Origin: [Phormidium] sp. ETS-05
GTDB lineage: Bacteria > Cyanobacteriota > Cyanobacteriia > Cyanobacteriales > Laspinemataceae
Assembly: GCF_016446395.1 (NCBI RefSeq)
Contig: NZ_CP051168.1
Span: forward strand, 3,621,579-3,685,578
Direction: 5' to 3'
Length of the DNA stretch: 64,000 bases
The notes under the pieces were generated by a model. The model was not told where the DNA came from and did no database searches. It saw only the letters and a list, made by a program, of their open reading frames with translations. Of this stretch, positions 14,401-57,700 are shown in pieces. The stretch's first letter is position 1. Every line of letters begins with the position of its first letter. Made by a program: the position numbers and the translations under genes.

Positions 14401-14439
14401 TTTAAAAAACCTGATGGGATTTGGATTTGAAAAAATCTT

Positions 14440-19129: not shown

Positions 19130-19137
19130 ATTCTTGT

Positions 19138-19262
19138 TCTTTGTCCTTAGTCCCTTGTCACTTGTCCTTTGTCAAATGACTAAGGACTAAGGACAATTGA
19201 CAATTGACAATTGACAATTCAATTATCAATTATCAATTGTCAATTGTCAATTATCAAATGAC
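19138..19262. repeat. STRR/hexamer-heptamer palindromic array between the convergent argC and eno genes.
   Basis: ttgtccttagtcccttgtcacttgtcctttgtc ... gacaattgacaattgacaattcaattatcaattatcaattgtcaattgtcaattatc. Confidence 0.85.
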
Positions 19263-19263
19263 A

Positions 19264-20571
<1,308 letters not shown>

Positions 20572-20751: not shown

Positions 20752-21200
20752 TGTCCTTAGTCATTTGTCCCCTTCGGCAAGCTCAGGGCGGGCTTGGTCA
20801 TTTGTCCTTGGTCATTTGTCCTTGGTCATTTGTCATTGGTCATTGGTCATTGGTCATATAAGTGATAATTTGTTTGTATTTATTGTTAAAATTTTGATGT
20901 TTGGTTCATATGAACAAGTGACAAAGGACAAAGGACAAGTGACCAAGGACAAAGGACAAGAAGCAAAGGATAGCCGATACTTTATACTTGATAGTTGATA
21001 GTTGATAGTTGTCAATTGTCCGTAGGGGCACGGCGTCATCAAGATTTGGGTGAAACGATAAAGATTAATGATGCCGTGCCCTTACCAAGTGACAAAGGAC
21101 AAAGGACAAGTGACAAGTGACAAAGGACAAAGGACAAAGGACAAGTGACAAGTGACAAAGGACAAGTGACAAAGGACAAGTGACAAGTGACAAAGGACAA
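20752..21200. repeat. Composite STRR arrays (TTGGTCA, TTTGTCC, GGACAAA, GTGACAA) flanking a long-stem hairpin element (21022-21086).
   Basis: Read directly from the sequence. The arrays are upstream of the kinase gene. Confidence 0.9.
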
Positions 21201-21261
21201 ATGATTAGGGTGCTGACTCAGAAAAGGTGATGTAATAGTTGAAGGATTTGTAGCTGGCACC

Positions 21262-23841
21262 ATGAAAGGGGTTTTAAATCAAGAGGAGTTGGCTGCGATC
21301 GCCCTCGCTTCTCGGCAAAGTTTCCTCTATGAAGAGGCACCGGACCATCTGGCGACCCTGGAAAAGGGTATCGAACAACTGCGCCAAGGGGGGGAGGAAT
21401 ACACCCCCATTATCCGAGCCGCCCATTCTTTGAAAGGGGGGGCGGGTTTGGCATCGATGCCAGAATTATCCCGTTTGGCGCATAAGTTGGAAGATTTGCT
21501 CATTGCCCTGCGATCGGGAAGAATCACCGCCAGGGACACAGCCAATCGACTTTTGTCTCAAACCCTCGATCGCATCGCTGAGCAGCTATTGGCAGCAATG
21601 GGCAACCAAGAACTGCCCGAAGGCCCCCAAAAGTTGGAAGCTACCACCGCTGCTCTGGAAGAATTTTTAGCCCAGCTACCCACCGCCACCGACGCCGAAG
21701 CCGAACCCGAACCGGTGGCATTTTCATCTTTTCAGCAACCGAGTTTCTACAAAACTGCCCTCACTGAAGATTTGGAGGAATGCTTACAGCGGTTGGAAGC
21801 GGATATCACAAGTGCTGCAGCAGTTGCCAGTTTTGTGGAAGAAGCCACCCTCTTGGGGGAAACTCTGGGTTTGACTTGGTTGCGGGATATGGCGGCGGAA
21901 ATGGAGGCTGTGTCTGGTGACACACTGCCAGAGGCGGCTATATCGGAGATTATCTCTCGCATTCGTACCAGCCGCACCGAGTTTTTAACCGGTACAACGC
22001 CATCGCCGGAAACTACGCCACCGCCGGAAATTACGCCACCGCCAGAAACATCCCCCCCACCAAGGGACGATCGGGCAGGAGAAGGGGGGGTGGGAGCCAG
22101 CCTGCCGATCTTCAATTCTCAGATTCCCCAGCGGTTTTTAAAATATCTGATTTTACAGCCACAGGCAGCACCACCACCAGGGTTGCTACAGGTGCGGGTG
22201 CCTTTGTCACGCCTGGAGGCGATGGGCGATCGAGCCGCTGAGTTACTCGCTCAATGTCAGCGGTTACAAGATACCACCAATCCAGATATCCCCGCCGCCA
22301 TTACCGCCATCCGCTCTCGCTTAGAAGCCCTCAGCGCCGATATTACCGAGCTGCGCCTGGTGCCTTTCCGGCAGATAGCCGATCGCTACCACACCCCCCT
22401 AGAAAGCCTCAAACAACAATATCACAAACAAGTTCAGCTCCAAATCGAAGGCCAAGAAAACCTCGTTGATCAAGTCATCTTAGAACAACTACAAGCCCCC
22501 CTCACCCACCTATTTCGCAACGCCTTCGACCACGGTATCGAGCTACCCGTAGAAAGAAAAGCCCTGGGTAAACCCCCGATCGCCACCATCACCCTCGCCG
22601 CCACCACCCGCCGTTCTCACCTAGAAATTACCATCACCGATGATGGACGTGGCATCGATATTGAAACTGTTTATCAACGCGCTGTCGAAAAAGGACTGAC
22701 CAATCAAGATTATCACCAACTCACCACTGCAGAAATCCTGAAATTTATCTTCACCCCCGGTTTTTCCACCGCCAAACGTGTCACCGACCTATCAGGCAGG
22801 GGCGTTGGTTTAGATGTGGTCTTATCCCAAGTTTCTCGCCTCGGCGGTTCTCTAGAGCTAGCCACCAACCCGGGCTATGGCACCAAATTTATCATCACCG
22901 TGCCCCTAACCCAGACAGTTTTGCCCCTCTACTTTTTCCAATGTGGTGGTGCCTCCCTTGCCCTCCCTGCCAGCGATATTATCGATATTCTCGATATGAG
23001 CGATACCACAGAGAGGCCAGAAGAAATTATCTGGCAAAATCAATCTATCCCTTTGTTTAATTTAACCAATATCCTGCCCTATGGCCGCCAAGCTAGACGA
23101 ATAATTAACGCATCTGCAGCCCAGAGTCCAGAAACCGGGTGTCTGTCTAGCTCTCTGCTAAAGCCCTCACCCCCAGCCCCTCTCCCACCAGGGGAGAGGG
23201 GAGAAATGTTCAGCTCCGAGGTTTTGCATAGAAAACCGGTTTCTATAATTATTGATATTGGCCAAAAAATTGGGCTATTAGTAGATAATATTAGCGCCAA
23301 ATTATCCGCTGCTGTCAAGCCTTTTGACCCCACCTTACCCGTGCCAGCGTGGGTGGAGGGTTGGACTTGGGGAAGTCGTGGGGAAGTGGTGCCGATGCTA
23401 TCGGGAGCATCTCTGGCAGAAATAATTCCTGTCTCCACTGCGCCCGCTCAAACCACTATTCTCGTGGTTGATGATTCTCCCGCTGTGCGGCGCACCCTAG
23501 AAATGGTGTTATCCGCTGCAGGTTTTGCCGTTGTCACGGGCAATGATGGTCAGGAAGGTATCGCCGCTTTGACGGAAAATGCGGCGAGATTCAGTTTAGT
23601 GATATCAGATTTAGAAATGCCTAATCTGGATGGTTTTGGCTTATTGGCCGCTATCAAAAATCATCCGATTTGGCGTCGGTTGCCGGTGGCGATGCTCACT
23701 TCCCAAAACACGCCATACCACCGCCGTCGCGCTCTGGAATTGGGTGCTGCAGTTTACCTCACTAAACCTTTTGAACCGGCGACAATTTTAGCCAGTTTGT
23801 CGGGCTTGGGATTACCAAAAATCAGTGATATTATAGCCTAA
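21262..23841 (+). CDS. CheA-like hybrid histidine kinase (HPt - kinase - CheW - receiver).
   Basis: HPt motif [28 protein letters not shown]. HATPase region [13 protein letters not shown]...[12 protein letters not shown] CheW-like segment. A C-terminal REC domain ([15 protein letters not shown]...[19 protein letters not shown]...LTKPFE). A Pro-rich linker ([16 protein letters not shown]). Confidence 0.8.
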
Positions 23842-24423
23842 TTCGGCTACCATCCGCCGCAGCAGGGGCAAGCTCAAGCCGATAACGTTGGTATGGCAGC
23901 CTTCGATTTTTTCTACGAATAAGCCGCCGCGTCCATCAATGGCAAAGCAGCCAGCGCACTGGAGGGGTTCGCCGGTGGCAACGTATTCGGCAATTTCCCG
24001 ATCGCTTATATCGGCGAAAAATACCCGCGTCACCTGACATCTCACCACTGTTTGCCGTTTCCCCACATCGATTAAAGCATGACCTGTATAAAGTTCCCCC
24101 ACATTCTGGCGCATCAGCCGCCAGCGAGCTTCCGCCTCCGTTGAGTTCGCCGGTTTACCATGTATTTCCCCCGCCAAACTTAACACCGAATCACATCCCA
24201 ACACTAATAGGGGTTGTGGTCCTTCCTCTCCTCGCCAAACTCTGGCTGCCACACTTTCCGCCTTGCATAGAGCCAAAGTCTCCACCAACTCCACCGGGTT
24301 ATCTGACTCCACAGAAGTTTCATCAAAATCGCTATCTATAACCACCGGATGAATTCCCGCACTGATGAGCAACAACCGGCGAGCTTTCGACTTAGAACCC
24401 AAGATAAACTGACCTTTACCCAT
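23812..24423 (-). CDS. maf: Maf-like nucleoside triphosphate pyrophosphatase.
   Basis: [30 protein letters not shown]... and the length match Maf/YhdE. It overlaps the 3' end of the kinase gene by 30 nt. Confidence 0.75.
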
Positions 24424-24582
24424 TTGTCCTTTGTCCTTTGTCCTTTGTCCTTTGTCCTTTGTCCTTGGTCATTTGTCCTTTGTCCTTTGTCCTTTGACAA
24501 TTGACAATTGACAATTATCAATTATCAATTATCAATTATCAATTGTCAATTGTACTTTGGGGACAAGGGACAAGGGACAAAT
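24421..24582. repeat. STRR inverted-repeat array ((TTTGTCC)n ... (CAATTGA/CAATTAT)n ... (GGACAAG)n).
   Basis: Read directly from the sequence. Confidence 0.85.
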
Positions 24583-24584
24583 GA

Positions 24585-25128
24585 CTAATTCACAGAAAAA
24601 CTTTTGACCACAGTGTTAAACTGTGCTGAGCGTTTTTGCCAGCTATTTTCCGTGGTAGATAAATTCAAGGTGAATAATTTCCCCCGGCTTACAGCCACAC
24701 TAGCTAAATTGTGCCGATGCAGGTCGTTAGCCAGCTTCACGTCATATTCAAAAATGTAGTAACTTTTATCCCCTTTTTCCAGGCTTTCGGCGCTGAGCAG
24801 TTCTGCTTCCCGTCCCGAACCCGCAGGCGCGATCGCATTTTTCGACAGCTTATAACCAACTTCTGAAGGCGTGCCCAATTCTGCCAGAGTTTTGCCATCT
24901 GGTACTTGGGAAATCACCACGCTAACATTATCCATTTGGTTGATTAAATCGTGGAATACCACATCTGGTCCCTTACCCGCATTTACCTGCGTCCAGCCAT
25001 TGGGATAAAAACTGATATCCTTTGTAGCTATCTACGTATGGCTGCAGTCCCGCCGTCGCCGAAGCCGCGCAGCTAGTAACTGTCACACTCAGCACTAATA
25101 AAATAATTGTCGCAATCCGTTTGAACAT
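24585..25128 (-). CDS. cyanoP: PsbP-like protein CyanoP (lipoprotein), with an apparent 1-nt frameshift in a T run near 25000.
   Basis: The ATG at 25128 gives MFKRIATIILLVLSVTVTSC (lipobox) ...YVDSYKGYQFL, which then shifts frame to PNGWTQVNAGKGPDVVFHDLINQMDNVSVVISQV... (PsbP fold). Confidence 0.7.
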
Positions 25129-28558: not shown

Positions 28559-28574
28559 ACTTAATTAAATTATT

Positions 28575-28740
28575 AGTTTAAGTCCTTTGTCATTTGTCAT
28601 TTGTCCTTTGTTATTTGTCATTTGTTTTGTTATACAAGGGACAAAGGACAAGGGACAAGTGACAAATGACAATCCCCCAACCCCCTTTGAAAGGGGGGGA
28701 CTTGCGGACAAGTGACAAGTGACAAATGACAAATGACATT
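28575..28740. repeat. STRR inverted-repeat array containing a GC-clamp palindrome (28676-28702).
   Basis: Read directly from the sequence. Confidence 0.85.
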
Positions 28741-28742
28741 GC

Positions 28743-29222
28743 CTATTGGGAGACTAGGAGGGTGACGGCGTAAGCGGCGATACCTTCTTCTCGTCCTACG
28801 GGGCCTAATTTTTCGTTGGTGGTGGCTTTGATGCCGATTTGGTCGGGATTTAGTTGCAGTATATGGGCGATCGCGTCTCGCATGGCCCCGATGTGGGGTT
28901 TGAGTTTGGGACGTTCAGCCACGATTACGGAGTCGATATTTTCAATCTGCCAGTGGCGCGATCGTACCAATTGATTTACCTGAGCGAGCAACTCTAAGCT
29001 ATTCGCTCCCCGCCACCGCTCATCCGTGGGGGGGAAATAATGTCCGATATCTCCCAAGCTCAAAGCTCCGAGCATAGCATCCATAATGGCGTGTGTCAGT
29101 ACATCGGCATCGCTGTGTCCGAGTAACCCCAACTCGTGTGGGATGTTGACTCCCCCCAAAATCAAGGGACGTTCTGGGGTTAACCGATGGATGTCGTAAC
29201 CGTTGCCTATGCGAAATTTCAT
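28743..29222 (-). CDS. ispF: 2-C-methyl-D-erythritol 2,4-cyclodiphosphate synthase.
   Basis: [53 protein letters not shown] is canonical IspF. Confidence 0.9.
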
Positions 29223-29882: not shown

Positions 29883-30239
29883 ATGGCAGTACAGCAAGCA
29901 GTAGGGGCATTGGAAACCAAGGGTTTCCCCGGCATTCTCGCCGCCGCCGATGCAATGGTGAAAGCGGGTCGCGTTACTCTGGTGGGTTATTTGCGTGTAG
30001 GTAGTGCCCGGTTTAGCATCATCATTCGCGGTGATGTGTCGGAAGTGAAAACCTCGATGGATGCGGGGATTGCAGCGGTAGAATCGGCTTACGGTGCAAC
30101 TCTGGAATCTTGGGTGATTATTCCCCGTCCTCACGAAAACGTGGTGGCGGTTCTGCCGATCGCCTTCACCGCTGCGGTAGAAGAATACCGCGAAGCTGCA
30201 GAAGGCATCATTATGCCGGGACGCCCCCCAGTCCGCTAA
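29883..30239 (+). CDS. ccmK4: Carboxysome shell protein CcmK4-like (BMC-H).
   Basis: AVGALETKGFPGILAAADAMVKAGRVTLVGYLRVGSARFSIIIRGDVSEVKTSMDAG. Confidence 0.8.
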   Translation: MAVQQAVGALETKGFPGILAAADAMVKAGRVTLVGYLRVGSARFSIIIRGDVSEVKTSMDAGIAAVESAYGATLESWVIIPRPHENVVAVLPIAFTAAVEEYREAAEGIIMPGRPPVR

Positions 30240-30430
30240 ATTTTTGTCCTTTGTCCTTTGTCACTTGTCCCTTGTCACTTGTCACTTGTCACTTGTCACT
30301 TGTCACTTGTCCCTTGTCCCTTGTATGAGTAAGACAATAAATGTTTTTGTTTCTCACTTGTATGAAAAAACAAAGGACAAATGACAAAGGACAAATGACA
30401 AAGGACAAATGACAAATGACAATTGACAAT
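30240..30430. repeat. STRR inverted-repeat array ((CTTGTCA)n ... (GGACAAA/TGACAAA)n).
   Basis: Read directly from the sequence. Confidence 0.9.
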
Positions 30431-30433
30431 TGA

Positions 30434-33077
30434 TTAGCTGTCACTGCGTGGGGGCAGGGGGTTGACTAAACCGCTGGCGGTACTAAATAAGTTGATGGGG
30501 TTTTTGCCATCGGTAATCAGTACGCTTTGGATGCCAAGACCTTCTAGCAAACGAGCCTGCATTTCTGGGCCTGCTTGAGCGATCGCCCGGAGGGTTTCTG
30601 TCCCGATCGCTGCCACTTTCTCGGCAAATTCCCGGCTAGTAATCTCCGCCATCGCCTGGGCTTTTTGCACTTCCAAATTGCTCAAAGCCTGCTGGTGTGC
30701 CAATTCTGCCTCTTGACGTGCCCTCATTTGCGCCAATTCTGTCTCAGCACGGATGCGGGTCGCTTCGGCTTCTTGTTGCGCCATACTTACGGCTAATTCC
30801 CCTTGAATGCGAGCCGCTTCGGCTTTTGCTCGCGCTGCCGCGATCGCCTCTCCCGTAGATTCAATAGCCGCGTTTTCCGCCTTTGATTCTAGCAGATTTT
30901 TCCGCTGTGCTTCCGAAGCCGCCTTATCAATAATTGCCTGCCTTTCTAACCGGGCTCGCTTCCTGTTCCAACCGCGCCGCATCCTGTCGCGCCGCCGCTT
31001 CTTGAGCATCCGTAGTAATTTTAATCGCCAACTGCACCGATTTCTGTAAACTCTTTAACGTTTCCTCATCCACCGGTTCCACCGATTGAATATCCACGTT
31101 AAAAATCACCAGATTATTCGTCCTGAATCGGAATTCATCGCGCACGTGCCCTTGGTCATCTAAGCCAAACACTGCTTGGCGAATAATCCGCGCCGAATTG
31201 CGGTGAAATTCATCAAAAGAAACACTAGCCACCGCACCCCGCACGCGAGAAGCAATAGCTTTACAAGCCGTATCCACAAAATCAGGCGCTTGAAACAGTT
31301 TGGCCGCCTCATCTTGATTGGTTTTATCTACATTAAAATACCAATTATAAGACAAGCGCAATTGTAACCGGGCGTGGTCTGCAGTTTCCACCGCAAACAA
31401 ATCGGTCATAAAGTCGGGTCCTAACAGCAAAGCCAGAGATTTAATCACATGGGGACGCTTGGGCACTCCTCCCGATAAACTCAGCACCGTAAAGGCTTCG
31501 TCTGGACCTAACATCACCAAATCTGGGCCAAACACAGTCCGGGCAGTTCTTTCCTTATAATCGTGAATCTGTACTGCCGCATTTTGGGGCACGTGAAACA
31601 CCACGGCGCGAGTTTTATCTCTTTGAAAGCTAGATTTCTGCTCGCCATCTTGGCGATATCTGCCCCGTTCAGAAACTGGGTCATTTTTAATCGCCAGCAA
31701 CTCTTCTACGATAGGCGGTACATCTTTTTCCCATAATTCTTCATAGGGACTGAGCATATATGCTCGCGGACCGCTGACTACTTTTAATTCCCCCGTTTGC
31801 ACGTCCCGGACGTAGATGCCTTCATTTTTATCTAAGGGAATGGCTTGGCGTTTTTCTACTACTTCCACCTCCACGCGGGGAATGTATTCTCGCGGTCCGG
31901 ATATCATCCATAAATCCCCCGGTTGACGGTGGATGATTTGGTCGCCTTCACCTTCATCGAAGGCTTCATTAGCCCGGAGTAACAAGGCTTCTTGTTCGCT
32001 GAGGACATAAATTCGGCGAATGCCCTCCGGTTGACCTTCAGAATCATCATCATCCGTATAGTAGGGGATTTCCAACTCTTCTCCGGGATGGAGGAAAAAG
32101 GAGATTCTCCCTTGACGGACTTCTCGTTTCCCTAGTTGCGGTTTGCCCAATTCATCGATGGGGTTGAAGACGATGCACCATTCCCGATCGCTCAGGGTGG
32201 TAATGGGTACTTCTCCCACCACTTCTTCATAGACATCGGGGATATGAATTTCCGCATCTTCTATAGTTACGAGCCATTCATCCCCAGCTTTGCGCCGCCG
32301 TCCGAAAATATCGGTAAAAGTCCGTTTAGCGCGCAAGTGTAAAGCGGTTTGTTCTGTTAATACATAAGCATCAATCAAGTCGATAACTTCTTCATCGACT
32401 CCGGGTAAATAAGAGCCTTCTTCTCTTACCAGCCATTCTTCCCCAGCGCGGCGCCTTTGTCCCGTGCGATCGGTGCAATTTTGTCGCGCCATCAAATGCA
32501 GCGCCTGATTAGGTTTGATAATTATCGCTTTCACCGTAGCGATAACTTCCACTTCCACGCGAGGAATATAAGTTCCTGGACCTTCAAATAGCCATTCATC
32601 CCCCGCCAACTGGTGGATAACGTTGTTTTGATTGTCAGTATAGGATAAATCTCTAATCGCTCGCAACCGCAGAGCTTGATTTCTTTCTACTACCTGCAAA
32701 AGCTGGACTTTTCCCTCGATTTCTTCCCCCGGATATACTGGGAAAGGCTCTTGCTGAAAGCGGATTTCTCGGTCGCCATATCGGAGTTTAATTTGACCGT
32801 GAGTATCCGCTACTGGTTGCCCCGACTCATCCCGCAATACGGGATTTTTTACTACGCAATAATGCCTAGGCGGCACTACGGTCATTTGCTGGGGTGACAT
32901 TACTACCCGTTCTTGGTCTCGCAGAGTAATCGTTTGGGGGCCAACTTCCAAACGGGTAACGCCAGTGTTGTTATCCAAGACGTGAATAAACTGTTGGGGT
33001 TTGAGGCGGATCGATCCCCCAGATATTCCGGGGAGTTCGCTGGGAGTTTCCCCAATGCGATCGGCTTTAGTCATCAA
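30434..33077 (-). CDS. Major vault protein (MVP) homologue, split by a +1 frameshift near 30940-30960 into a 716-aa N-terminal ORF and a 191-aa C-terminal ORF.
   Basis: The N-terminus ...[53 protein letters not shown]... mirrors the eukaryotic MVP N-terminus (...YIHVLDQN..VEVGPKTY...VPPRHYC..). Multiple MVP repeat units follow. The second ORF is the Ala/Glu/Arg/Gln-rich cap-helix coiled coil. The combined length of about 880 aa matches MVP. Confidence 0.75.
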
Positions 33078-33400
33078 GTTTCCTCAGCCATGATTGGAAT
33101 TGTCTTCTGATTTATTCTAGCCTTGGCTCTATTTTTTCGTCGATAAATATTAATTAACTTTTGTTACATTTTGGCGCAAATAGATAGATTTGTAGGTTGG
33201 ATCCGCCATCGACGAAACCCAACCTACAGATTTTGGCTAAGAGCTGATTTATAAAGTACATCTTGAAGGACATCGGCGCATGAAAGCGTCAAGGATCCCC
33301 CCCTGCCCCCCCTTAAAAAAGGGGGGGAATTTCTACAGCCCCCCTTAAACAGGGGTTGGGGGATCCAGATTTTCTTTATGAATCAGCTCTAATAACGGGG

Positions 33401-34381
33401 TTAGATGATGGCGAGAGAAATCATCAGGGCATGGAGGTTATCCCCGAAGGCGGTAGTTATCTCATGGGTGATGGGCAGGCTATCAACTACCATCCCTGCA
33501 GAAAGCAGCATGAGATAAAGGATGGAGTATTTGAATAAACTGCGGGCGAGCTGCTTGTCTTCCGGTTCGCGCAATAGTTGCCATGCTTTGAGGGCGAAGA
33601 TGGCGCCCAGCCAAAGGGCGATGCTGGCGTAAACCACACCGCTGGCGTGGAGGGGATAAACCAGGAGGAAGGTGGAGGGGAGCATCACTAGGGTGTAGAG
33701 CCAAATTTGCTGGGCGGTGGGTTGGCAACCAGCGATCGCCGGGAGCATGGGGACTCCGACTCCGGCGTATTCATCCCGGATCATCATGGCGAGAGCCCAG
33801 AAGTGGGGGGGAGTCCAGAGAAAGACGATCGCGAACATTGCCCAAGCTGGCCAACTGAGGTCCCCGGTGACGGCGGCCCAGCCCACGAGAGGGGGAATAG
33901 CACCCGCTGCACCCCCGATGACGATATTTTGGGCGGTGTGGCGTTTCAGCCAGTGGGTGTAAACCAGGACATAACAGACAATACCGGACATTGCCAACAA
34001 AGCGGCGAGCAGGTTGGCAAAGATGGTGAGCAAACTAAAGGATGCGGCGGCGAGAGCCATAGCGAAGATGAGAGCATCCCGAGGCTGTACCCTACCGGAG
34101 GGGATGGGCCGCTTTCGGGTGCGTTCCATAATATAGTCGATGTCTCTGTCGTAGAGACAGTTAATGGTATTGGCGGATGCAGCGGCTAAGGCGCCACCAG
34201 TAATAGTCACCAATAGCAGCAAGGGGTCCACTTCGCCTTTGGCGGCGACCCACATGGCGGCGGCGGTGGAGATGAGCAGGAGCAGGATGATGCGTGGTTT
34301 GGTGAGTTGGTAATAACTCTGCAGCACCTGGATGAGATTTTGATGGTGTCTGATAACGGGGCGATCGATTATTTCTTGCAT
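33401..34381 (-). CDS. ctaB: Protoheme IX farnesyltransferase (heme O synthase).
   Basis: [46 protein letters not shown]... is a UbiA-family polytopic protein with CyoE/CtaB motifs ([20 protein letters not shown]). The listed ORF's first 23 aa are a translated STRR array. Confidence 0.85.
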
Positions 34382-34397
34382 CGGTTTTATTCCTAAA

Positions 34398-34580
34398 CAG
34401 CTTGTGGTTTGTCCTTTGTCATTTGTCACTTGTCCTTTGTCCTTTGTCACTTGTTACTTGTCACTTGTATGAATAAAAAATCCCAAAGGACAAAATAATC
34501 CCTACCCAAGGACAAAGGACAAATGACAAAGGACAAATGACAAAGGACAAATGACAAAGGACAAAGGACAAAGGACAAAG
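34398..34580. repeat. STRR inverted-repeat array between ctaB and ctaA.
   Basis: Read directly from the sequence. Confidence 0.9.
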
Positions 34581-34588
34581 GACAAAAA

Positions 34589-35518
34589 TTAATCCCGCAT
34601 CGCCAGGGTGGCGAATACGACCAAAGTGCCCAACAAGGCGGCCCCGGTGGTGTGGTGAGCGACGGTGAGGGGTTCGACTTGCAGGTGGAGGTAGAAGGTG
34701 GCGACGCCTAAACTAATTTGGCAAACCAGCAAAGTGGTGGCGGCGATCGCGAGACGGCCCAGAGTGGGATGGAGGTTTTGGTGCGCCAAGCCATGACGGC
34801 GAGGGTAAGGATGGCGGTGGTGGGGAAGACTACCCCGATGATGTGGCTGTGCATCACTGTGCATAGCTGCTGGTAGCCAAAGCATTGGTGTAAAGCCCAT
34901 TGGGAGGCGACTAGACCGCCGGAGATGCTTTGCAGATACACCAGGATGGCGCTACCAACTGCCACCCAGGGGAGTTTAGATCCCCCAACCCCCTTTTAAA
35001 GGGGGGGAAATGACGCCGGTGCCTTCATAGGGGGTGAGTGCGGCGGCGATCGTCAATAAGGTGATGAAAAATAACAAAGCGGTGCCCAAATGAGCGGTGA
35101 CAATATCAAACCGCAGCAGCTCAGTCACGGTGAGCCCGCCCAAAACCCCTTGAAACACGATTAAACCGAGGGCACCCGTGGCGGCCCAAGGTAGCCAACT
35201 GGGCAAGTGGCGGCGATACCACCAGCTACCCCCTGCGAGAGCAATGGCCATAATGCCAATTAGGGAAGCATCGAGGCGGTGAAACCATTCTAAGAACACT
35301 TGCAGATTCATTTGCCGAGCGGGCAATAATTCCCCGTAGCACAGGGGCCAGTCAGGGCAAGCTAGTCCCGCATTCATCACCCGCGTGGCGCTACCCACCG
35401 CCATGAGTAACAGGGTGGCAATAGCGATTTTCCAGACAAAACCACGGATCCGCTGTTGGGTTAAGGTGCTGTCACTGTTGGTAGTTGCCTGCTTCGGCTC
35501 CATCACTGAGTTAGCCAT
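34589..35518 (-). CDS. ctaA: Heme A synthase (CtaA/COX15), disrupted. An inserted GC-clamp palindromic element introduces a stop, and at least one further frameshift follows.
   Basis: Three consecutive minus ORFs in three frames (34976-35518, 34708-34965, 34589-34900) all look like COX15 transmembrane segments with conserved His (e.g. LACPDWPLCYG, TVMHSHIIGV, LTVAHHTTGA). The first ends inside the palindromic repeat at 34978-35010. Confidence 0.6.
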
Positions 35519-35914
35519 AGGCTGTTTTTCCCCTCAATTTACACCAAACTTAATTTATCTGTGAGTTTTGACTCTTAGGTTAACTCCCCCTCCGCCTCTG
35601 TGGGAGAATTTGCTTCATACCAGCTTAATCAGGCTTTTGGGATTGGCAGTGGGTTTTATAATTTTTTCGGGATTGTTACAATTAGTGCCTCGGTGCATTG
35701 GGACTATTGCCGTCTGAGTTAATATAACTTGGGATTTTTCCGCCATAAATGGAACACAGGGGACAAAGACAATGCCGGATCCCGAATAAATTCTAAAGAT
35801 TTGTCACAACGTCGTCCCGCTCCGGATACCTGCTTTACCGTTGTTAGGGGATGGATATGCAAAAATTGCTAAGTTTAAGTCTGAACATCTGTTCTGGCTG
35901 TATGGGCGGTGTTT

Positions 35915-36045
35915 GGGCTTCAGCCCAACTACAAACCCAAGATGGGCTTCAGCCCAACTACGAACCTCATAAGTTACGTGATATTTGGGCTTCAGCCCAA
36001 CTACGAACCAAAAGAGGGCTTCAGCCCAACTACGAACCATTCGAT
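35915..36045. promoter_or_regulatory. Four direct copies of a 23-nt motif GGGCTTCAGCCCAACTAC(A/G)AACC, each with a GGGC-TTCA-GCCC mini-hairpin, in the ctaC leader.
   Basis: Copies near 35923, 35951, 35994 and 36023, with spacers of 5, 20 and 6 nt. Confidence 0.6.
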
Positions 36046-36077
36046 AGGCGAGGGGTTTCAATTGAGGAGGTTATGAT

Positions 36078-37091
36078 TTGAAGATACCGAATGCTATAAC
36101 TGCGATGCTTGCGGGCATCGTCTTAACCCTGGCGAGTCTCTGGTTTGGTCAAAATCACGGTCTGATGCCAGTGGCTGCCTCAGAAGAGGCCCCCTTGGTG
36201 GATGGTCTGTTTAATGCGATGATGACGATCGCCGCCGGTCTGTTTATCCTGGTGCAGGGAGCGCTGGTGATTTCGATTATCAAATTCCGGAAGCGTCCGG
36301 GGGATGAAACCGATGCGCCGCCAGTGGATGGCAACCTATCCCTGGAAATTGTCTGGACCGCTATCCCGGTAGTCATAGTCTTGGGTCTGAGTGTATATAG
36401 TTTTGAGGTGTACAACACGATGGGGGGTCTCGACCCGATGGCATCCCACGACCACGGCCCCCACCAGATGGCTATGACTAGCGGGTCTGCCATAGCTGCT
36501 CCCCTTCCTGGCAGTGAAGATGCGATACCACCGGCGAAAGAAGAGAAAATCGCCCTAGGGGTAGGCGCTTCCCCGGAAAACCAAGGGAACCCCGCCGATT
36601 TAGAAGTGAATGTGCTGGGTTTACAATTTGCCTGGATTTTTACTTATCCTGAAAGCGGCGTTGTTTCTGGCGAACTGCATATCCCTGCTGGCAAAGAAGT
36701 TCAGCTCAACATTGCGGCTCAAGATGTTCTCCATGCCTTCTGGGTGCCGCAGTTCCGCCTGAAACAAGATGCGATTCCCGCACGGACTACGGAACTGCGG
36801 TTTAAACCAAAAACTCCGGGAGATTATCCGATCGTCTGTGCGGAACTCTGCGGCGCCTATCATGGGGCAATGCAGACTCGGGTATTGGTGGAAACGCCAG
36901 AAGATTTCGAGGCTTGGTTGCAAACCCAAATCGCTCTCCAGAAGGATGCGGCGTCTCAAACTGTGGCCATGAACCCGGGCGAATTATCCGATGGGGAGTT
37001 TTTGGCTCCTTTTGTTAGGGATATGGGGATTAATTCTGCAGCTTTGGAGCAGTTGCACCCAGCAGCTCACCACGAACATCACAATAGTTAG
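36078..37091 (+). CDS. ctaC: Cytochrome c oxidase subunit II.
   Basis: CuA centre HAFWVPQFRLKQDAIP...CAELCGAYHGAMQ. Two N-terminal TM helices. Confidence 0.9.
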   Translation: MKIPNAITAMLAGIVLTLASLWFGQNHGLMPVAASEEAPLVDGLFNAMMTIAAGLFILVQGALVISIIKFRKRPGDETDAPPVDGNLSLEIVWTAIPVVIVLGLSVYSFEVYNTMGGLDPMASHDHGPHQMAMTSGSAIAAPLPGSEDAIPPAKEEKIALGVGASPENQGNPADLEVNVLGLQFAWIFTYPESGVVSGELHIPAGKEVQLNIAAQDVLHAFWVPQFRLKQDAIPARTTELRFKPKTPGDYPIVCAELCGAYHGAMQTRVLVETPEDFEAWLQTQIALQKDAASQTVAMNPGELSDGEFLAPFVRDMGINSAALEQLHPAAHHEHHNS

Positions 37092-37220
37092 CTAGGAAGA
37101 TAAAATCCGGTTAATTACCCAGACTAACCTCTCCCTAAACTCCTCTACTCCCCTCTCCCTGTTTGGCAGAGGGGGCGGGGGTGAGGGGTTTTGAGAGCCT
37201 CATTTGTGCAAAAAAGATAA

Positions 37221-38900
37221 TTGATTATGACAACTACAGGAATCGAAACCACGATGAAGCCGCCAGAGCCTGACGAGGCAAGTAATGGCAATAATTGGCG
37301 AAAATACTTTGGCTTTAGCACTGACCACAAGGTGATTGGGATTCAATATCTTGTCACCAGCTTTTTGTTTTACTTGATTGGTGGTCTGTTGGCGGAAGGT
37401 GTGCGGGTGGAACTGGCAACCCCAGACCCGGATTTTGTGGACCCACAGCTTTATAATGGGTTGTTTACGGTTCACGCCACGGTGATGATTTTCCTGTGGA
37501 TTGTGCCAGCAACGGCGGGTTTTGCTAATTATGTGATTCCCCTGGCGATCGGGGCAAAAGACATGGCCTTCCCTCGGTTGAATGGGGTGGGTTTTTGGTT
37601 GATTCCCCCAGGAGGAATTTTGCTCCTATCCAGCTTTTTTGTGGGCGCGCCTGCAGCGGGTTGGACTTCTTATCCCCCTTTAAGTGTGGTGGGGGAAAAA
37701 GGCGGCCAGTTACTGTGGATTCTCAGCGTGTTGGTGCTGGGAACTTCATCGATTTTGGGTGCGATAAATTTTCTCTCTACGATTCTGAAAATGCGCATCC
37801 GAGAGATGGAGCTAAATGATATGCCCTTGTTTTGTTGGGCAATGCTGGCGGCTTCGGCGCTGATTTTGGTGTCAACGCCGGTGCTGGCGGGGGCGCTGAT
37901 TTTGCTCTGTTTTGATTTGATGGCGGGTACTCCTTTCTTTAACCCAATGGCTGGCGGAGACCCGGTGGTTTACCAGCATATGTTCTGGTTTTATTCCCAC
38001 CCGGCGGTTTATATTATGATTCTGCCAGTGTTTGGGATGATTTCAGAAATTATCCCGGTTCACGCTCGCAAGCCGATTTTTGGTTATCAGGCGATCGCTT
38101 ATTCCAGTCTCGCTATCAGCTTCTTGGGTCTCATCGTCTGGGCTCACCATATGTTCACCAGTGGGACTCCCGGCTGGTTGCGGATGTTCTTTATGATTGC
38201 CACAATGGCGATCGCTGTCCCCACCGGTATCAAAGTCTTTAGCTGGGTTGCCACCATTTGGGGGGGCAAACTCCGTCTCAATAGCGCCATGTTATTCGCG
38301 ATCGGGTTCGTCTCTATGTTCCTCGTGGGTGGACTCAGCGGCGTCATGCTCGCCTCGGTTCCCTTTGATATCCACGTTCACGATACCTATTTCATCGTCG
38401 CTCACCTCCACTACGTTCTATTTGGCGGTAGCGTTTTCGGCATTTACGCCGGTGTTTACCACTGGTTCCCCAAAATGACCGGGCGGATGATGAACGAATT
38501 TTGGGGCAAAGTTCATTTCTTCCTCACCTTTTTCGGTTTTAACCTTTGCTTCTTACCCATGCACTGGTTGGGGCTCCAAGGTATGCCTCGCCGCGTTGCC
38601 CAATACAACCCAGAATTTGCCACGGTGAATATGGTTTGTACTGTGGGCTCTTTCATTTTGGCCATTTCTACTCTGCCTTTTCTGTTTAACGCGATTTGGA
38701 GCTGGATAGCCGGACCAAAAGCCTCTGCTAATCCCTGGCGGGCTCTAACTTTAGAGTGGCAGACTTCTTCTCCTCCTCCGGTAGAAAACTTTCTCGAGGA
38801 ACCGGTTTTGTGGTCTGGTCCTTATGAGTACGGCATTGATACCCTCTATGACCGTCAGTCTGCCGATGAATTGCTCGCAGAAGTGAAAGGGGAAGTTTGA
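37221..38900 (+). CDS. ctaD: Cytochrome c oxidase subunit I.
   Basis: 559 aa, 12 TM helices, canonical heme-copper oxidase motifs (WFFGHPEVY-like FWFYSHPAVYIMILPVFG, HHMF). Confidence 0.95.
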   Translation: MIMTTTGIETTMKPPEPDEASNGNNWRKYFGFSTDHKVIGIQYLVTSFLFYLIGGLLAEGVRVELATPDPDFVDPQLYNGLFTVHATVMIFLWIVPATAGFANYVIPLAIGAKDMAFPRLNGVGFWLIPPGGILLLSSFFVGAPAAGWTSYPPLSVVGEKGGQLLWILSVLVLGTSSILGAINFLSTILKMRIREMELNDMPLFCWAMLAASALILVSTPVLAGALILLCFDLMAGTPFFNPMAGGDPVVYQHMFWFYSHPAVYIMILPVFGMISEIIPVHARKPIFGYQAIAYSSLAISFLGLIVWAHHMFTSGTPGWLRMFFMIATMAIAVPTGIKVFSWVATIWGGKLRLNSAMLFAIGFVSMFLVGGLSGVMLASVPFDIHVHDTYFIVAHLHYVLFGGSVFGIYAGVYHWFPKMTGRMMNEFWGKVHFFLTFFGFNLCFLPMHWLGLQGMPRRVAQYNPEFATVNMVCTVGSFILAISTLPFLFNAIWSWIAGPKASANPWRALTLEWQTSSPPPVENFLEEPVLWSGPYEYGIDTLYDRQSADELLAEVKGEV

Positions 38901-39050
38901 TTTTTGTCCTTTGTCCTTTGTCATTTGTCCTTTGTCATTTGTCATTTGTCCTTTGTCCCTTGTCACTTGTAACTTGTATTCACAAAAAATGACAAATCTC
39001 ACTTGTATGACAAAACAAAGGACAAAGGACAAATGACAAATGACCAATTT
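38900..39050. repeat. STRR inverted-repeat array between ctaD and ctaE.
   Basis: Read directly from the sequence. Confidence 0.9.
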
Positions 39051-41096: not shown

Positions 41097-41325
41097 ACCT
41101 CGCCCTCAAATGCGCTCTCCCCATTCTGGCACAAAAGTTCGGAGTTGAGCTTTAGCCGAAAAGGGGACGGGGAGACGGGGGGACGGGGGGACTTCTGGAC
41201 CAGGGGACTAGGGGACGGGGAGACCAGGGGACCAGGGGACGGGGGGACCAGGGGACTGGGGACCGTCACCCCCTCACCCCGTCTCCCCGTCCCTTTGGGT
41301 GTTGGGTTTCGTTCCTCAACCCAAC

Positions 41326-46401: not shown

Positions 46402-46459
46402 CTTATTTTTACTTCATGTGTATTCGGTGATTTATCCCCTACTTTCAAAGGGGGTTGGG

Positions 46460-46800
46460 GGATTCTTTTGTCTTTGGTCATTGGCTGTAGGGGCACGGCG
46501 TCATTGAGATTTCTCGTGAAACCCAGATATTAATGAGGCCGTGCCCCTACCACGGGATGATTTTTTTCATATGTGCAATTGTTATTTGTCGTTGGCCATT
46601 GGTTGTGGGGGCACTGCGTTATTAAGATTTCTCGTGAAACCTAGATATTAATGAGGCCGTGCCCCTACCAGGGGAGGCTTTTTTCATATGTGCAATTGTC
46701 ATTTGTACTTGGTCATTGGTTGTGGGGGCACGGCGTTATTAAGATTTCTCGTGAAACCCAGATATTAATGAGGCCGTGCCCCTACCACGGTAGATTGAGG
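46460..46800. repeat. Three tandem copies of an approximately 120-bp unit, each containing a 21-bp-stem hairpin (GTAGGGGCACGGCGTCATTAA ... TTAATGAGGCCGTGCCCCTAC).
   Basis: Units start near 46486, 46606 and 46726. Single copies of the hairpin occur at 21022-21086 and 40478-40543. Confidence 0.85.
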
Positions 46801-46827: not shown

Positions 46828-47916
46828 TTACGGCTGTAATTTTTGTAAGTTTTGCACTCGTGTGACATCACCTAATGTTTCATAACCTTGAATTGCCTCC
46901 TGGAGAAATCGCTGGGCTTGGGGGGTATCTTTCAGGGCGGAATAAATTTCTGCCAATTTTGCCGCTGCTTCGGTTTTGATGACTAAATCGGGGGTTTCAG
47001 TGGCGAGTTGGAAGGCTTGGAGATAGTTGTTTATGGCTAGCTGGTTTAGTTGTACTTCCTCGTACAAACCTGCTAGGGTGTGGTAAATTTGGGCTGATTT
47101 TATATTGGCACTGATGGCGGTTTCTAGGGTCTCAATGGCTTCGGCTCTTAACTTATATTTCTGGTATAATATGACTTGGGCTAGAGTCTGCGTGGGTTGG
47201 CCTGGTTGCTGCTGACTTAGTTCGGTGAGGTCGGCTTGGAGGTTGGCTCTTTTACTGTCATCAAGTATGGTGAATCCGAGCTGCATTCCGGGGTCATCAG
47301 TGGAACTAGCCCCGCTGTCGGTGATGATGGTAATTAAGTAATATTCTCCGGGTTGTAAGGGGGTTTCGCCTCCATAAACTACTTGATTGGTGGTGACTTC
47401 TGTTTTCCAATCGACTCCGACTCCCCGCACGCGCACGCGATAGCTGTTGGCTCCGGTTACGGCGTTCCAGCGGATGGTTGGGGTTGGGGAAAGTAGGTGG
47501 GTGCGGCGGGGACTGATGAGATAGGGAAGGTTGGCATCGATACCGGCGATCGCGTCCCCCATAGTGGGATCGGGATTCACAGTCGGCACCGGACAGATAT
47601 TTGCTACCCCTGACGGACTGCCACTGGGTACAGGCTGTGTGGTGCCGTTGCTGCATTGCAGCTTGACTTGGCTCCCGGCGGCGGGCCAAATTAAATCGCC
47701 GTTATCCAGGCTGGTGCCTACGGCGGCGGGTTGGTAGCTGCTCCACCCACTACGTTTGATAGATACTTGTCCGGTGGCGGTGAGGATCGTTCCCAGGGAA
47801 GCGGCGACGGCGGTTGGGGCAGTGGTGAATGCCCCAGTCACCATGATGGACGTGGTAAGTCCGAGGGAACTAAAGCGGTTTAAATACAGGTTTTTGGTGA
47901 GAGTTTGACTGCACAT
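46828..47916 (-). CDS. Secreted FecR-domain protein with C-terminal TPR repeats.
   Basis: Signal peptide. FecR-like GQVSIKRSGWSSYQPAAVGTSLDNGDLIWPAAGSQVKLQCSNGT. C-terminal TPR-like helices. It is paralogous to the ORF at 51545-51916. Confidence 0.55.
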   Translation of the reverse strand: MCSQTLTKNLYLNRFSSLGLTTSIMVTGAFTTAPTAVAASLGTILTATGQVSIKRSGWSSYQPAAVGTSLDNGDLIWPAAGSQVKLQCSNGTTQPVPSGSPSGVANICPVPTVNPDPTMGDAIAGIDANLPYLISPRRTHLLSPTPTIRWNAVTGANSYRVRVRGVGVDWKTEVTTNQVVYGGETPLQPGEYYLITIITDSGASSTDDPGMQLGFTILDDSKRANLQADLTELSQQQPGQPTQTLAQVILYQKYKLRAEAIETLETAISANIKSAQIYHTLAGLYEEVQLNQLAINNYLQAFQLATETPDLVIKTEAAAKLAEIYSALKDTPQAQRFLQEAIQGYETLGDVTRVQNLQKLQP

Positions 47917-49615
47917 CTAATTGCCTCTGTTGCATCAGCATAACTTCATAACTTACCAACCGTTGCTGAGCCATATCAATCCACTTACTTTCTTCGGGAG
48001 TAGTAGTGGGTTGAGCGTAACGCAGACAGTTTTCCCACTCGGTCAAAGCTGCCTTTGGTTGGTTTTGGTTTTCTAGCACTTGCGCTAATAAGCAGTAAGC
48101 GGAGGCTCGTTCTGGGTTGAGGCTGATAGCCATCCGCAAATTGGCTTCGGCGACTGCATAGCCTTTTTGGATAGCTCTTGCCCATCCCAAGTTTTTGTGC
48201 AGGGAATATTTCACCCCATTACTAAAATTGTTTTTCTGTAGTTCAGGCAATATTAGTTGTACTGCTGCCTCGGGATTTCCCGCTAGAATTTCCAACCGAG
48301 CTAAATTATTTACCGCTGGGGTGTAGCCTTTTTTGGCGGCTTTGTAGTAATACTCTTTGGCTAGGTTTTGGTTGAAAAAAGGCTGTTTTTCATACAGCAA
48401 ACCCAGATTATTATAAGGTTTGGGGTAATTGGGTTTGACCCAAATGGCGGTGTGATACCAAAATTCGGCTTGTTCTGGGTTTGTGGTTCCTGCGGCTTGT
48501 CCTAACCGGGTGCAAAAGTCGGCTATGGGTTGCAGAGTTAGCTGCAAGCCAATACACAATATCAATAAGCTGATGGCCGATCGCCGCATTTGCTGTGGGG
48601 AAAACGGCCATGAGAAGATGATTCCTAGACGCAGGTTCTGGCGACGAAACTCCCCAGAGATGTGAGGATTTGAGGGATTTTCCTCGGTGCTTTCTGAGGG
48701 AGCATCATAAAGATGCTGTAGCCGCTCTAACAGCACTTGGGGATTGGCTGGTCGCTGCTGGGGGAGAGGGGATATCATTTGGTCGAGCAAATCTGCCAAC
48801 GGTTTGGAGATTCCCTCTACCCGATCGCGCCATAGCAGTTTATTGGTGCGCCGATGTTTGGGCAAATCGTCGGGATATGAGCCGGTGAGCAAATGGACGA
48901 TCGTGCAGCCAAGACCAAAAATATCTGATTGGGGAACCGCCCCCCCGCTGCGCTGTTCTGGTGCGGTGTATCCATAGGAACCCACCGGCGTCACAGCGCG
49001 ATTAATAAACCCCACGTTGCCAAAGTCGATTAATGCTAATTCTCCGTTAGCTTTCAGGATAATGTTGCTGGGTTTGATATCCCGATGCAGCAATCCTTCT
49101 TCATGTACGTAAATCAGCAGTTGGGTGATTTGGCGCAACCAATTTACCGCGATCGCTTCGGTAATCTCCCCATTTTCCTGGAGCCATGCTCGGAGGTTAG
49201 TCCCCTCAATCTGCTCCATTACCAGACAGGGCAATTGCCTGTGAGCATCTAGAGAAATGGTGAAGAAGCCATCCGGTTCGACCCGAGGCAAACCGGGATG
49301 ACGCAACCGCTTTAATATGGTGGCTTCTCGTTCAAACAGAGTTTGGGCGCCGGTTTCCTGCATTTTGAGAACTTTCAGCACTTTGGGCCAGTCCTCTCGG
49401 TCAGGATTGATGTCCCAGTCTTCCACCTCAAAGACATCGGTTGTGTATTCTTCGTCCAATTGCCGCAGGGGTTTGGCGAGGCGATAGCGATCGTTGATCA
49501 GCAGTGGCGTACCGCAACTGAGACAGCGAGAGCCATCATCGGGGTTGAAGCGGTTGATACAACGGGGGTTAATGCAGTAACACCCGATTTCGGGGGGTTG
49601 ATTAGCGGCAGTCAT
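47870..49615 (-). CDS. Membrane Ser/Thr protein kinase with an N-terminal zinc-ribbon and C-terminal TPR/Sel1-like repeats.
   Basis: CINPRCINRFNPDDGSRCLSCGTPL zinc ribbon. Kinase subdomains (HRDIKPSNIIL, IDFGNVG, GSYGYTAPE). A TM helix, then TPR-like repeats. Confidence 0.8.
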   Translation of the reverse strand: MTAANQPPEIGCYCINPRCINRFNPDDGSRCLSCGTPLLINDRYRLAKPLRQLDEEYTTDVFEVEDWDINPDREDWPKVLKVLKMQETGAQTLFEREATILKRLRHPGLPRVEPDGFFTISLDAHRQLPCLVMEQIEGTNLRAWLQENGEITEAIAVNWLRQITQLLIYVHEEGLLHRDIKPSNIILKANGELALIDFGNVGFINRAVTPVGSYGYTAPEQRSGGAVPQSDIFGLGCTIVHLLTGSYPDDLPKHRRTNKLLWRDRVEGISKPLADLLDQMISPLPQQRPANPQVLLERLQHLYDAPSESTEENPSNPHISGEFRRQNLRLGIIFSWPFSPQQMRRSAISLLILCIGLQLTLQPIADFCTRLGQAAGTTNPEQAEFWYHTAIWVKPNYPKPYNNLGLLYEKQPFFNQNLAKEYYYKAAKKGYTPAVNNLARLEILAGNPEAAVQLILPELQKNNFSNGVKYSLHKNLGWARAIQKGYAVAEANLRMAISLNPERASAYCLLAQVLENQNQPKAALTEWENCLRYAQPTTTPEESKWIDMAQQRLVSYEVMLMQQRQLDVQSNSHQKPVFKPL

Positions 49616-52363: not shown

Positions 52364-52508
52364 ATAATTCGAAAAGTTGCCAATATTTTTTTACCTTTGT
52401 CGATTTTTCAAAAAGTAGAAAATTTTATTTTTGCTTAATTTTAAAAATCCCAAACACAAGCGATAATTAAATTAGGTAAAAACTCCGACCTTTAAAGAGG
52501 AGGACAAT

Positions 52509-52952: not shown

Positions 52953-53112
52953 GGAAAAATTTCTAGGAGAGCCGTAGTAGGGTGGGCAATGCCTGACGGA
53001 TAATTTTTTTATAACCATTGTTCTATAGTTAGCACTGCCCACCCTACAGAACTCCCATTATTAGCTATAATTAAATTAGGTAAAAACTCCGACCTTTAAA
53101 GAGGAGGACAAT

Positions 53113-53556: not shown

Positions 53557-53717
53557 GGAAAAATTTCTAGGAGAGCCGTAGTAGGGTGGGCAATGCCTGA
53601 CGGATAATTTTTTTTATGACCATTGTTCTATAGTTAGCACTGCCCACCCGACAGAACTCTAAACACAAGCTATAATTAAATTAGGTAAAAACTCCGACCT
53701 TTAAAGAGGAGGACAAT

Positions 53718-57360: not shown

Positions 57361-57700
57361 ACTCCCCTCTCCCTACCTGGGAGAGGGGATGGGGGTGAGG
57401 GCTTTAGAGGCTTCAGTGTGGTGATAAAGCCAGCCCTCTATCCCCCAACCCCTTTCTCCCAGGGGGGGAGAAAGGGGCTAAAGCCCTCTCCCGTTTTCTC
57501 CCCTCTCCCTACTTGGGAGAGGGGCCGGGGGTGAGGGCTTTAGAGGCTTCAGTGTGGTGATAAAGCCAGCCCTCTATCCCCCAACCCCTTTCTCCCAGGG
57601 GGGGAGAAAGGGGCTAAAGCCCTCTCCCGTTTTCTCCCCTCTCCCTACCTGGGAGAGGGGATGGGGGTGAGGGCAGATTTGCGGTGAGGGTCTGCACCAA
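57361..57700. repeat. Approximately 140-bp unit repeated about 2.3 times, containing the CCCTCTCCC-N-GGGAGAGGG and CCCCTTTCTCCC-GGGGGGGAGAAAGGGG palindromes.
   Basis: Read directly. Unit starts near 57361, 57502 and 57640. Confidence 0.8.

Follow-up and report, generated by a model that had tools for sequence, protein, structure and literature searches.

A small palindromic repeat inside the heme A synthase gene ctaA of the cyanobacterium [Phormidium] sp. ETS-05 and its probable residence in frame

Introduction

The heme A synthase gene ctaA of the cyanobacterium [Phormidium] sp. ETS-05 is broken as assembled, and a palindromic repeat of about 30 nt lies where its first reading frame ends. 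The question raised by this locus is whether the repeat has destroyed the gene or simply occupies it. The gene lies in a 64,000-nt stretch of contig NZ_CP051168.1 (the window, to which all positions refer), a cyanobacterial sequence with ctaB (33401-34450) and ctaA (34589-35518) on the minus strand and ctaC, ctaD and ctaE on the plus strand. The account that is favoured here, on balance and as a whole, combines a mobile mini-repeat, an in-frame polymorphism among strains and bases that were lost in base calling or consensus generation.

Reading frames of ctaA and alleles of close relatives

As assembled, ctaA comprises a first open reading frame (ORF) of 180 aa, a middle part in the +1 frame and a C-terminal part that is back in the first frame. 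The coding strand is the minus strand, so that the gene reads the G-rich reverse complement of the element. The first ORF reads ...PYEGTGV ISPPLKGGWGI and then meets a TAA at 34976-34978, which lies just outside the element and belongs to native sequence read out of frame. The downstream frame has a TAA within the loop of the element, and the third frame is open (HFPPFKRGLGDLNSPG). A preliminary description of the window had correctly placed a copy of the repeat inside ctaA (at 34978; the exact start is 34979), and had assigned it stop codons in all three coding-strand frames, of which just one contains a stop. A second frameshift that was absent from that description lies at 34776-34781, about 200 nt downstream of the element, where the coding strand reads CC-AAAA as against CCC-AAAA or CC-AAAAA in relatives and the frame is shifted back; the loss of 1 nt in CC(C)AAAA(A) holds relative to every relative.

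Comparison of the ctaA locus among relatives, as the preliminary description had proposed, revealed both presence and absence of the repeat. At 80 orthologous loci (65-74% identity) an uninterrupted CtaA of ~298 aa is encoded, with the sequence PY(Q/E)GTGxxGKLPW and without the insert. The closest CtaA proteins in a protein search are named Oscillatoriaceae cyanobacterium M33_DOE_052 and Planktothricoides sp. SpSt-374. Empty alleles are represented by P0001 (98%) and its cluster-mates P0121-P0124, which are 300 aa long and read GTGVTGKLRW, while the filled alleles, of 310 aa, carry the insert at exactly the same site: P0002 (94%) reads GTGV-ISPPIIGGLGGS-KLPW and P0125 reads GTGV-ISPPFKGGLGGS-KLRW. 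In DNA, the empty allele is GGCGTC-ACCGGT-AAACTC and the filled allele is GGCGTC-ATTT-C7-TTTCAAA (or GATCATC)-G6-TT-G6-ATCT-AAACTC. In the filled relatives L082 and L088, whose runs are C6-AA-C6, CCGG is thus replaced by 34 nt (net +30 nt) with no target duplication. The window has the same junctions and G5-TT-G5 on the coding strand, a 32-nt block in place of CCGG (net +28 nt), and 35011 and 34978 are the points at which its alignment to the empty allele L081 is interrupted. Three alleles have the site filled, and at least five have it empty. Because five close alleles are without the insert and two carry it in frame, the ctaA element is a genuine insertion polymorphism.

Both C6 runs are read as C5 in the window, which makes its copy 2 nt shorter than the insert of the relatives. 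Restoring three bases yields an uninterrupted 310-aa CtaA with ISPPLKGGLGGS, identical to P0002 at 300 of 310 positions. The earlier claim that the element truncates ctaA therefore describes the ORF as assembled, which stops at ...ISPPLKGGWGI, and not the insert as such, which is in frame in intact 310-aa relatives. An ancient insert that is in frame after error correction and shows no insertion polymorphism had been considered as the opposite case; the frame is indeed recovered with the three bases, and the polymorphism does exist.

The insert falls in the cytoplasmic loop between CtaA helices 4 and 5. The AlphaFold2 (AF2) model of P0002 shows the inserted residues (171-180) as a loop that lies between helices 137-160 and 183-211 and has a pLDDT below 50, and B. 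subtilis CtaA (6A2J) has a comparably long linker at the same place. On either strand the C runs are translated as Pro and the G runs as Gly, and stops in the loop of the element are rare; a 30-nt copy therefore lengthens the protein by ten loop-friendly residues (ISPP-xx-GGLGGS), and the gene remains intact. Such tolerance is seen in the gene calls and would presumably extend to the protein. The ctaA gene of the window is probably intact as well, with a ten-residue, strain-polymorphic loop insertion.

Architecture of the repeat

The element in ctaA belongs to a family of non-coding palindromic repeats of very small size (~30 nt), in which a head, (G/A)AT-C6-AA, is followed by a hairpin, C6-TT(T)-n-(A)AA-G6/7. 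In the window the motif takes the form (G/A)ATC5AAC5-TTTNAAA-G7, and all three single copies (28671-28700, 34979-35009 and 46434-46464) share the same architecture. The abundance of the motif is far above chance: the hairpin core CCCCCTTTNAAAGGGGG with at most two mismatches has 5 matches against 0.08 expected from shuffles, and the head GATCCCCCAACCCCC has 7 matches against 0.33. The density is four copies in the 64-kb window versus two in ~1.3 Mb of other cyanobacterial ctaA loci. A compound copy comprises a forward unit (GGATC7-TG-C7-TTAAAAAA-G7), an 11-nt spacer and a reverse unit (C6-TTAAACA-G4-TT-G5-ATCC). The dispersed copies of the preliminary description agree to within a few bases with the exact positions for 28671, 33293, 34979 and 46434. 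The partial member that it had included at 55205-55232 was discarded, as just C7-AAA-G5 is found there (55229-55243) and the C-AA-C head is absent. Two further repeat families of the window have the head ATCCCCCAACCCC joined to different hairpins.

As single-stranded DNA, the compound copy (33293-33366) folds into one long hairpin (-23.9 kcal/mol, z = -3.3). The short form is no more stable than composition-matched shuffles (z = -0.7 to -1.4), and folding energy alone is therefore no evidence for the element; only the doublet and a long form, described below, stand out. The loops are more informative. In 101 of 132 copies the stem is lengthened by 2-4 pairs formed by the loop ends, versus ~18 in shuffles (here and below, figures for metagenome copies refer to the matches listed from the scan described in a later section), and the loops of L082 and L088 are four substitutions apart, which make up two compensatory pairs (TTTCAAA to GATCATC), with pairing kept. 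Together with a core that is conserved across distant taxa, these features might indicate functional sites selected by the host, be they hairpins for RNA stability or termination, binding sites for proteins or a Pro/Gly linker under selection, which would be adaptive in ctaA. Such an origin is nevertheless quite improbable. Copies are present or absent among near-identical strains, lie in both orientations and in genic as well as intergenic positions, and are nested in other repeats, while the short form has no fold that exceeds the shuffles. In contrast to an intrinsic terminator, the ctaA hairpin is not followed by a T-run (its 3' neighbours are AAATGAC on the + strand and TTGGGGG on the - strand), and it was not flagged in a terminator scan of 34400-36100. 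A search of 15 loci gave no Rfam match at gathering thresholds. In the window, solely sub-threshold plant and animal microRNA models were matched, none of them genuine; these matches were dismissed as spurious, caused by inverted heptamer arrays.

Missing bases and the integrity of ctaA

All three ctaA lesions are single-base homopolymer deletions, and the truncation in the window is probably an assembly artefact and not the mark of a pseudogene. C5-AA-C5 and the missing base downstream would then be base-calling or consensus deletions in an error-prone assembly, and the real gene would encode the 310-aa protein. The identity of ctaA to L081 is 98.4% and 96.8% on the two sides of the insert, versus 94.5% for ctaC-ctaD. 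Apart from the indels the gene shows no decay and no excess of substitutions, and ctaB, ctaC, ctaD and ctaE are intact. Every localised frameshift of the window is a deletion (Table 1); that of purH suggests an assembly error because the gene is essential. A frameshift scan with the ORFs of relatives was informative for ctaA alone, synteny being limited. The lengths of the runs (C, C, G) in 128 metagenome copies among the matches listed are (6,6,6) in 63, (7,7,7) in 13 and (7,6,6) in 11, and C5/C5 occurs in just 3, as against all three single copies of the window; the orthologous ctaA copies of L082 and L088 are C6/C6.

The principal alternative, unlikely though not to be taken lightly, is that the assembled bases are right and that ctaA has recently become a true pseudogene. 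An in-frame 30-nt insert would have lost one base per C6 run, by slippage or by conversion to a C5-AA-C5 subfamily, and a further 1-nt deletion would have followed, leaving a strain without heme A and aa3-type oxidase activity. The assembled ORF does end after 180 aa, and homopolymer tracts are natural slippage hotspots. Several further observations weigh against the favoured account. The presence of C5-AA-C5 in all three single copies, as for a genome-specific master copy or homogenisation, could reflect a genuine genome-specific subfamily, the ctaA copy then being really out of frame. Many G/C runs of 6-8 are kept in intact ORFs of the window and the G7 of the element equals that of the relatives, so that under-calling would have to be motif-specific; blanket homopolymer collapse was rejected as an error model, since runs of 6-8 are common in intact ORFs. 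The three lesions in 0.9 kb of ctaA, versus none in 4.3 kb of ctaB/C/D/E, form a cluster. Run lengths in the window are those of the assembled sequence, and the in-frame insert of the relatives is known from gene calls (P0002, P0125). As to mobility, tblastn with an IS200 TnpA query, a search of low sensitivity, found no transposase in the 64-kb window or the fetched loci.

Inactivation, for its part, has to accommodate three frameshifts without excess substitutions in a gene that is 97-98% identical to L081, better than its neighbours, as well as three deletions that total exactly 3 nt, intact ctaB and ctaCDE, and the same kind of deletion in the essential purH and several other genes. The last point also bears on phase variation, in which three G/C tracts of the insert would slip often and the window would represent an OFF variant from a mixed population. 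The insertion brings slippage-prone tracts into ctaA, and both length differences from the in-frame alleles fall in the homopolymer tracts of the element itself. Phase variation is nevertheless extremely improbable, as tracts of 5-7 offer little length for efficient slippage, two changes at once and a third outside the element would be required, and the deletion pattern recurs in unrelated genes. An assembly error thus remains the preferred explanation of the missing bases. This assembly alone does not justify calling ctaA a pseudogene, and the pattern of deletion frameshifts in the window will inflate pseudogene counts. The locus would instead offer a clean natural example of a 30-nt selfish hairpin that sits inside an essential-pathway gene without destroying it, with empty and filled alleles and two loop variants.

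Turnover and possible mode of spread

Within 6 kb, relatives of 91-98% DNA identity differ by the presence or absence of a copy at three sites, namely ctaA, 33243-33388 and 37150-37175. The repeat had been described as a small palindromic element that is active or recently active, and the data bear this out in the sense of dispersed copies with recent turnover. In L082 and L084 the third site, between ctaC and ctaD, has a copy of the C6 element nested in the loop of a second-family hairpin, in place of GTTT; the window and L081 have TGTTT alone and are empty. Empty and filled states are related as T[GTTT]G to T[31 nt]G at this site and as A[CCGG]T to A[34 nt]T at ctaA, so that 4 nt are replaced at both. 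No target-site duplication was found at these two sites or across copies.

The filled or empty status at ctaA is not in step with the flanking haplotypes. The first 300 nt of the window ctaA are identical to the empty L081 and its junctions match the filled L082. In L088 the insert is accompanied by the KLRW flank. The junction changes (T-G to I...S) are common to all filled alleles, and there is no excision product among them. The pattern fits a single insertion with recombination afterwards. Orthologous copies in two related cyanobacterial contigs, L170 (near 1570-1607) and L207 (near 6613-6650), differ in that the 8-nt loop of one is the exact reverse complement of the other (GAACTCGC, GCGAGTTC), which looks like a loop inversion within the hairpin. 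Together with the compensatory loop changes between L082 and L088, this reversal points to hairpin-templated events.

In the Planktothricoides-like population, a copy became inserted among the ctaA codons for the loop that joins helices 4 and 5, with 34 nt in place of 4 nt, and the filled allele now segregates beside the empty one, apparently shuffled among lineages by recombination. The element itself would be non-autonomous and spread by copy-and-paste of a single-stranded DNA hairpin, mediated either by a Y1/HUH transposase in trans or by template switching. [quoted passage not shown] The repeat studied here might instead depend on its hairpin for a copy-and-paste spread, a suggestion that is made tentatively.

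Other repeats and genes of the window

Heptamer tandem repeats (GACAAAG, GACAAGT, TTGTCAT and similar) occupy most intergenic regions of the window, and the arrays are often inverted and foldable into long hairpins (Table 1). The second hairpin family is found as single copies and as tandem arrays of 136 nt and 86 nt. The sequence GGGCTTCAGCCCAACTACGAACC, a small GGGC/GCCC hairpin with a tail, occurs four times in the intergenic region between ctaA and ctaC (35914-36040), where relatives show indel differences. An octamer array of GGGGACNN lies at 41137-41277 and a perfect nonamer array of CTCCCCACA, with ~11 units, at 58113-58247. At 46828-49615, the ORF of a Ser/Thr kinase with TPR repeats (581 aa) overlaps a 362-aa TPR ORF in another frame by 47 nt, and the pair is probably one frameshifted gene. 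A nucleotidyltransferase (NTase)/HEPN gene pair with an overlap of ~80 nt (54413-55134) resembles a toxin-antitoxin module; a similar HepT/NTase pair is located near the cox genes in L082.

Table 1 Positions of the repeat copies, other repeats and genes with lesions in the window.
Feature	Position	Strand	Basis or remark
ctaA, heme A synthase, COX15/CtaA family	34589..35518	-	ORFs, PF02628 homologues
ctaA copy, GAT-C5-AA-C5-TTTTAAA-G7-AAA, 32-nt block	34979..35010	+	sequence
Second ctaA lesion, 1-nt homopolymer deletion	34776..34781	-	comparison with relatives
Intergenic copy, AAT-C5-AA-C5-TTTGAAA-G7-A, within heptamer array GACAAAT/GACAAGT	28671..28700	+	sequence
Intergenic copy, AAT-C5-AA-C5-TTTGAAA-GTAGGGG-AT, G arm degraded, directly upstream of 1691-aa ORF	46434..46464	-	sequence
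Compound copy, two inverted copies, between vault-protein gene and ctaB	33293..33366	.	sequence and fold
Presence/absence site 2, ~146 nt including the compound copy	33243..33388	.	absent from relatives L084, L087
Second-family hairpin, CCCCTCTCCC-TGTTT-GGCAGAGGGG	37150..37175	+	sequence; comparison with relatives
Second hairpin family, CCCCTCTCCC-loop-GGGAGAGGGG then (A/T)TGGGGGTGAGGGC	3701-3726, 23177-23202, 37150-37175, 57364-57661, 58920-59287		
Related element, same head (TATCCCCCAACCCC) and different hairpin (CCCCTTTCTCCC/GGGAGAAAGGGG)	57439..57468; second copy 57575-57604	+	sequence
Heptamer arrays (examples)	14161-14408, 19110-19270, 21052-21235, 24393-24598, 28568-28743, 30220-30450, 34371-34613, 38873-39047		
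purH (AICARFT/IMPCHase), split into two overlapping ORFs	11096-12657, lesion 12032-12035		one G lost from G5 run coding SAFGGIVA
Major vault protein homologue (Vault repeats and MVP shoulder domain), adjoins ctaB	30434-33077, lesion near 30958		2-nt deletion; one 880-aa ORF in L083-L087
Three tandem ~604-nt units, each with a 147-aa ORF	52459-54270		third unit: two 1-nt G deletions 8 nt apart, ORF broken
NotI-like restriction endonuclease gene in two frames	4828-5642		Pfam profile positions 8-153 and 153-238; exact lesion not located

Related sequences in metagenome contigs

A scan of metagenome contigs with the pattern CCCCCAACCCCC-N6-10-GGGGGG returned at least 120 stretches. The matches listed share features that go beyond the scan pattern, namely an AAAT or (G/T)AT prefix (AAAT in 56 and AGAT in 10 of 128 copies) and TT(T)...(A)AA loop ends. 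Many of these copies possess a second G6-ATTT arm, which gives a 46-nt double hairpin of -20.2 kcal/mol (z = -4.6). HIP1, the octamer GCGATCGC, is over-abundant in cyanobacterial genomes; the short form occurs in HIP1-rich contigs, and the long form in HIP1-free contigs of 44-71% G+C. A search with the NuoN-like sequence pointed to no clear taxon for the long-form contigs of lower G+C.

Many of the listed copies lie in frame within Pfam-supported genes, where they read PP(N/Q/T)PP(L/F)xKGG. The genes encode nonribosomal peptide synthetase (NRPS) adenylation domains, a Mur ligase, MurB (with two tandem copies), a CysJ-like reductase, QueA and a NuoN-like subunit, as well as NB-ARC and TPR proteins. 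In MurB and the CysJ-like protein the inserts fall between Pfam domains. The QueA contig is named Chloroflexi by its source. QueA orthologues (72-92% identical) have 0, 1 or 2 copies at one site, and the content of that single site sets their length, from 349 to 434 aa. In the Chloroflexi QueA (L105 480-590; alignment A3 columns 113-200), two inner hairpins together with a spacer lie between outer arms AAATCCCCCC...GGGGGGATTT. In another contig (L100 13645-13890), the element is part of a 72-nt unit; because four tandem repeats of this unit lie within an ORF (TPPTPPYQGGA...), the element contributes to a repeat protein.

These observations raise the possibility, put forward with reserve, that the ctaA insert is a member of an undescribed family that extends across phyla (Cyanobacteria, Chloroflexi and other, unplaced metagenome lineages), is kept mainly within genes because both strands encode Pro-Pro...Gly-Gly loops and spreads by a duplication-free copy-and-paste of hairpins in which a few bases of the target are replaced. 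Its members would be mini-elements of 30-46 nt with the nearly invariant core (A)AAT-C6-AA-C6-TTT-n-AAA-G6, extended in the long form by nnn-G6-ATTT, and the loop peptides would include PPNPPLxKGG and ISPPxKGGLGGS. In searches of the literature, neither the DNA core nor the encoded peptides turned up in a bacterial paper. If real, such a family would be an overlooked, general origin of small protein insertions in bacteria, would explain many short Pro/Gly-rich indels in bacterial alignments and would point to a mobilising activity that is still to be identified.

Comparison with known repeat systems

Small dispersed repeats (SDR1-8), reportedly described by Elhai and colleagues in 2008, are said to measure 21-27 nt and to occur in Nostoc punctiforme and its relatives. 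The element in ctaA resembles them as a very small (tens of nt), dispersed, hairpin-forming repeat of filamentous cyanobacteria that shows recent mobility without an encoded enzyme, and likewise lies embedded in heptamer repeats (the 28671 copy) or nested in other repeats (the third site in L082 and L084). Going by these descriptions it is longer, at 29-34 nt. To our knowledge, the SDR description includes neither in-frame residence in genes nor an occurrence in Chloroflexi. One report confines SDRs to a subgroup of Nostocaceae and records no SDR-like repeat elsewhere (PMC5861425). In contrast, the nearest relatives here are Oscillatoriaceae/Planktothricoides (Oscillatoriales) and copies are present in Chloroflexi contigs, such that the element is not confined to Nostocaceae.

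Repetitive extragenic palindromic sequences (REP) and REPINs are extragenic and species-specific, have a GT(A/G)G head, and each family is found beside its own RAYT gene (PMC3116915). The present element shares with them a short imperfect palindrome, a conserved head 5' of the hairpin, clustering and nesting, and the lack of a target duplication, and occurs both as singlets (at three sites) and as an inverted doublet (33293-33366) that folds as one hairpin. Its head is (A/G)AT followed by C6-AA rather than GT(A/G)G, its copies lie within coding sequence (ctaA, NRPS, Mur ligase, MurB, QueA and others), its core is common to several phyla, and no RAYT was found in the 64-kb window by the low-sensitivity tblastn with IS200 TnpA. 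Bacterial MITEs, for example Nezha in cyanobacteria, measure 50-500 bp and have terminal inverted repeats and target-site duplications (PMC10969869). Like these, the element is non-autonomous and multi-copy, is present or absent between strains and can disrupt or extend genes, but it has neither terminal inverted repeats nor target-site duplications.

The in-frame residence recalls the Rickettsia palindromic elements (RPE), reportedly described by Ogata and colleagues in 2000. RPEs are palindromic repeats of ~100-150 bp that are found in frame in unrelated housekeeping genes as well as in intergenic positions, and are confined to Rickettsia (PMC10969869). The likeness lies in the in-frame gain of a peptide in ORFs, as seen in gene calls (the 310-aa CtaA, Pfam-supported genes and QueA with 0-2 copies), and in insertion at fold-compatible positions (a loop in the AF2 model of CtaA; between domains in MurB and the CysJ-like protein). 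The present element differs in its size of ~30 nt (10 aa), in its cyanobacterial and Chloroflexi hosts, with a core found in several phyla, and in being tolerated simply because both strands translate its C and G runs into Pro and Gly. It works like SDR, REP/REPIN and RPE but fails defining features of each, namely the size or taxon of the first, the extragenic location and head of the second and the length of the third.

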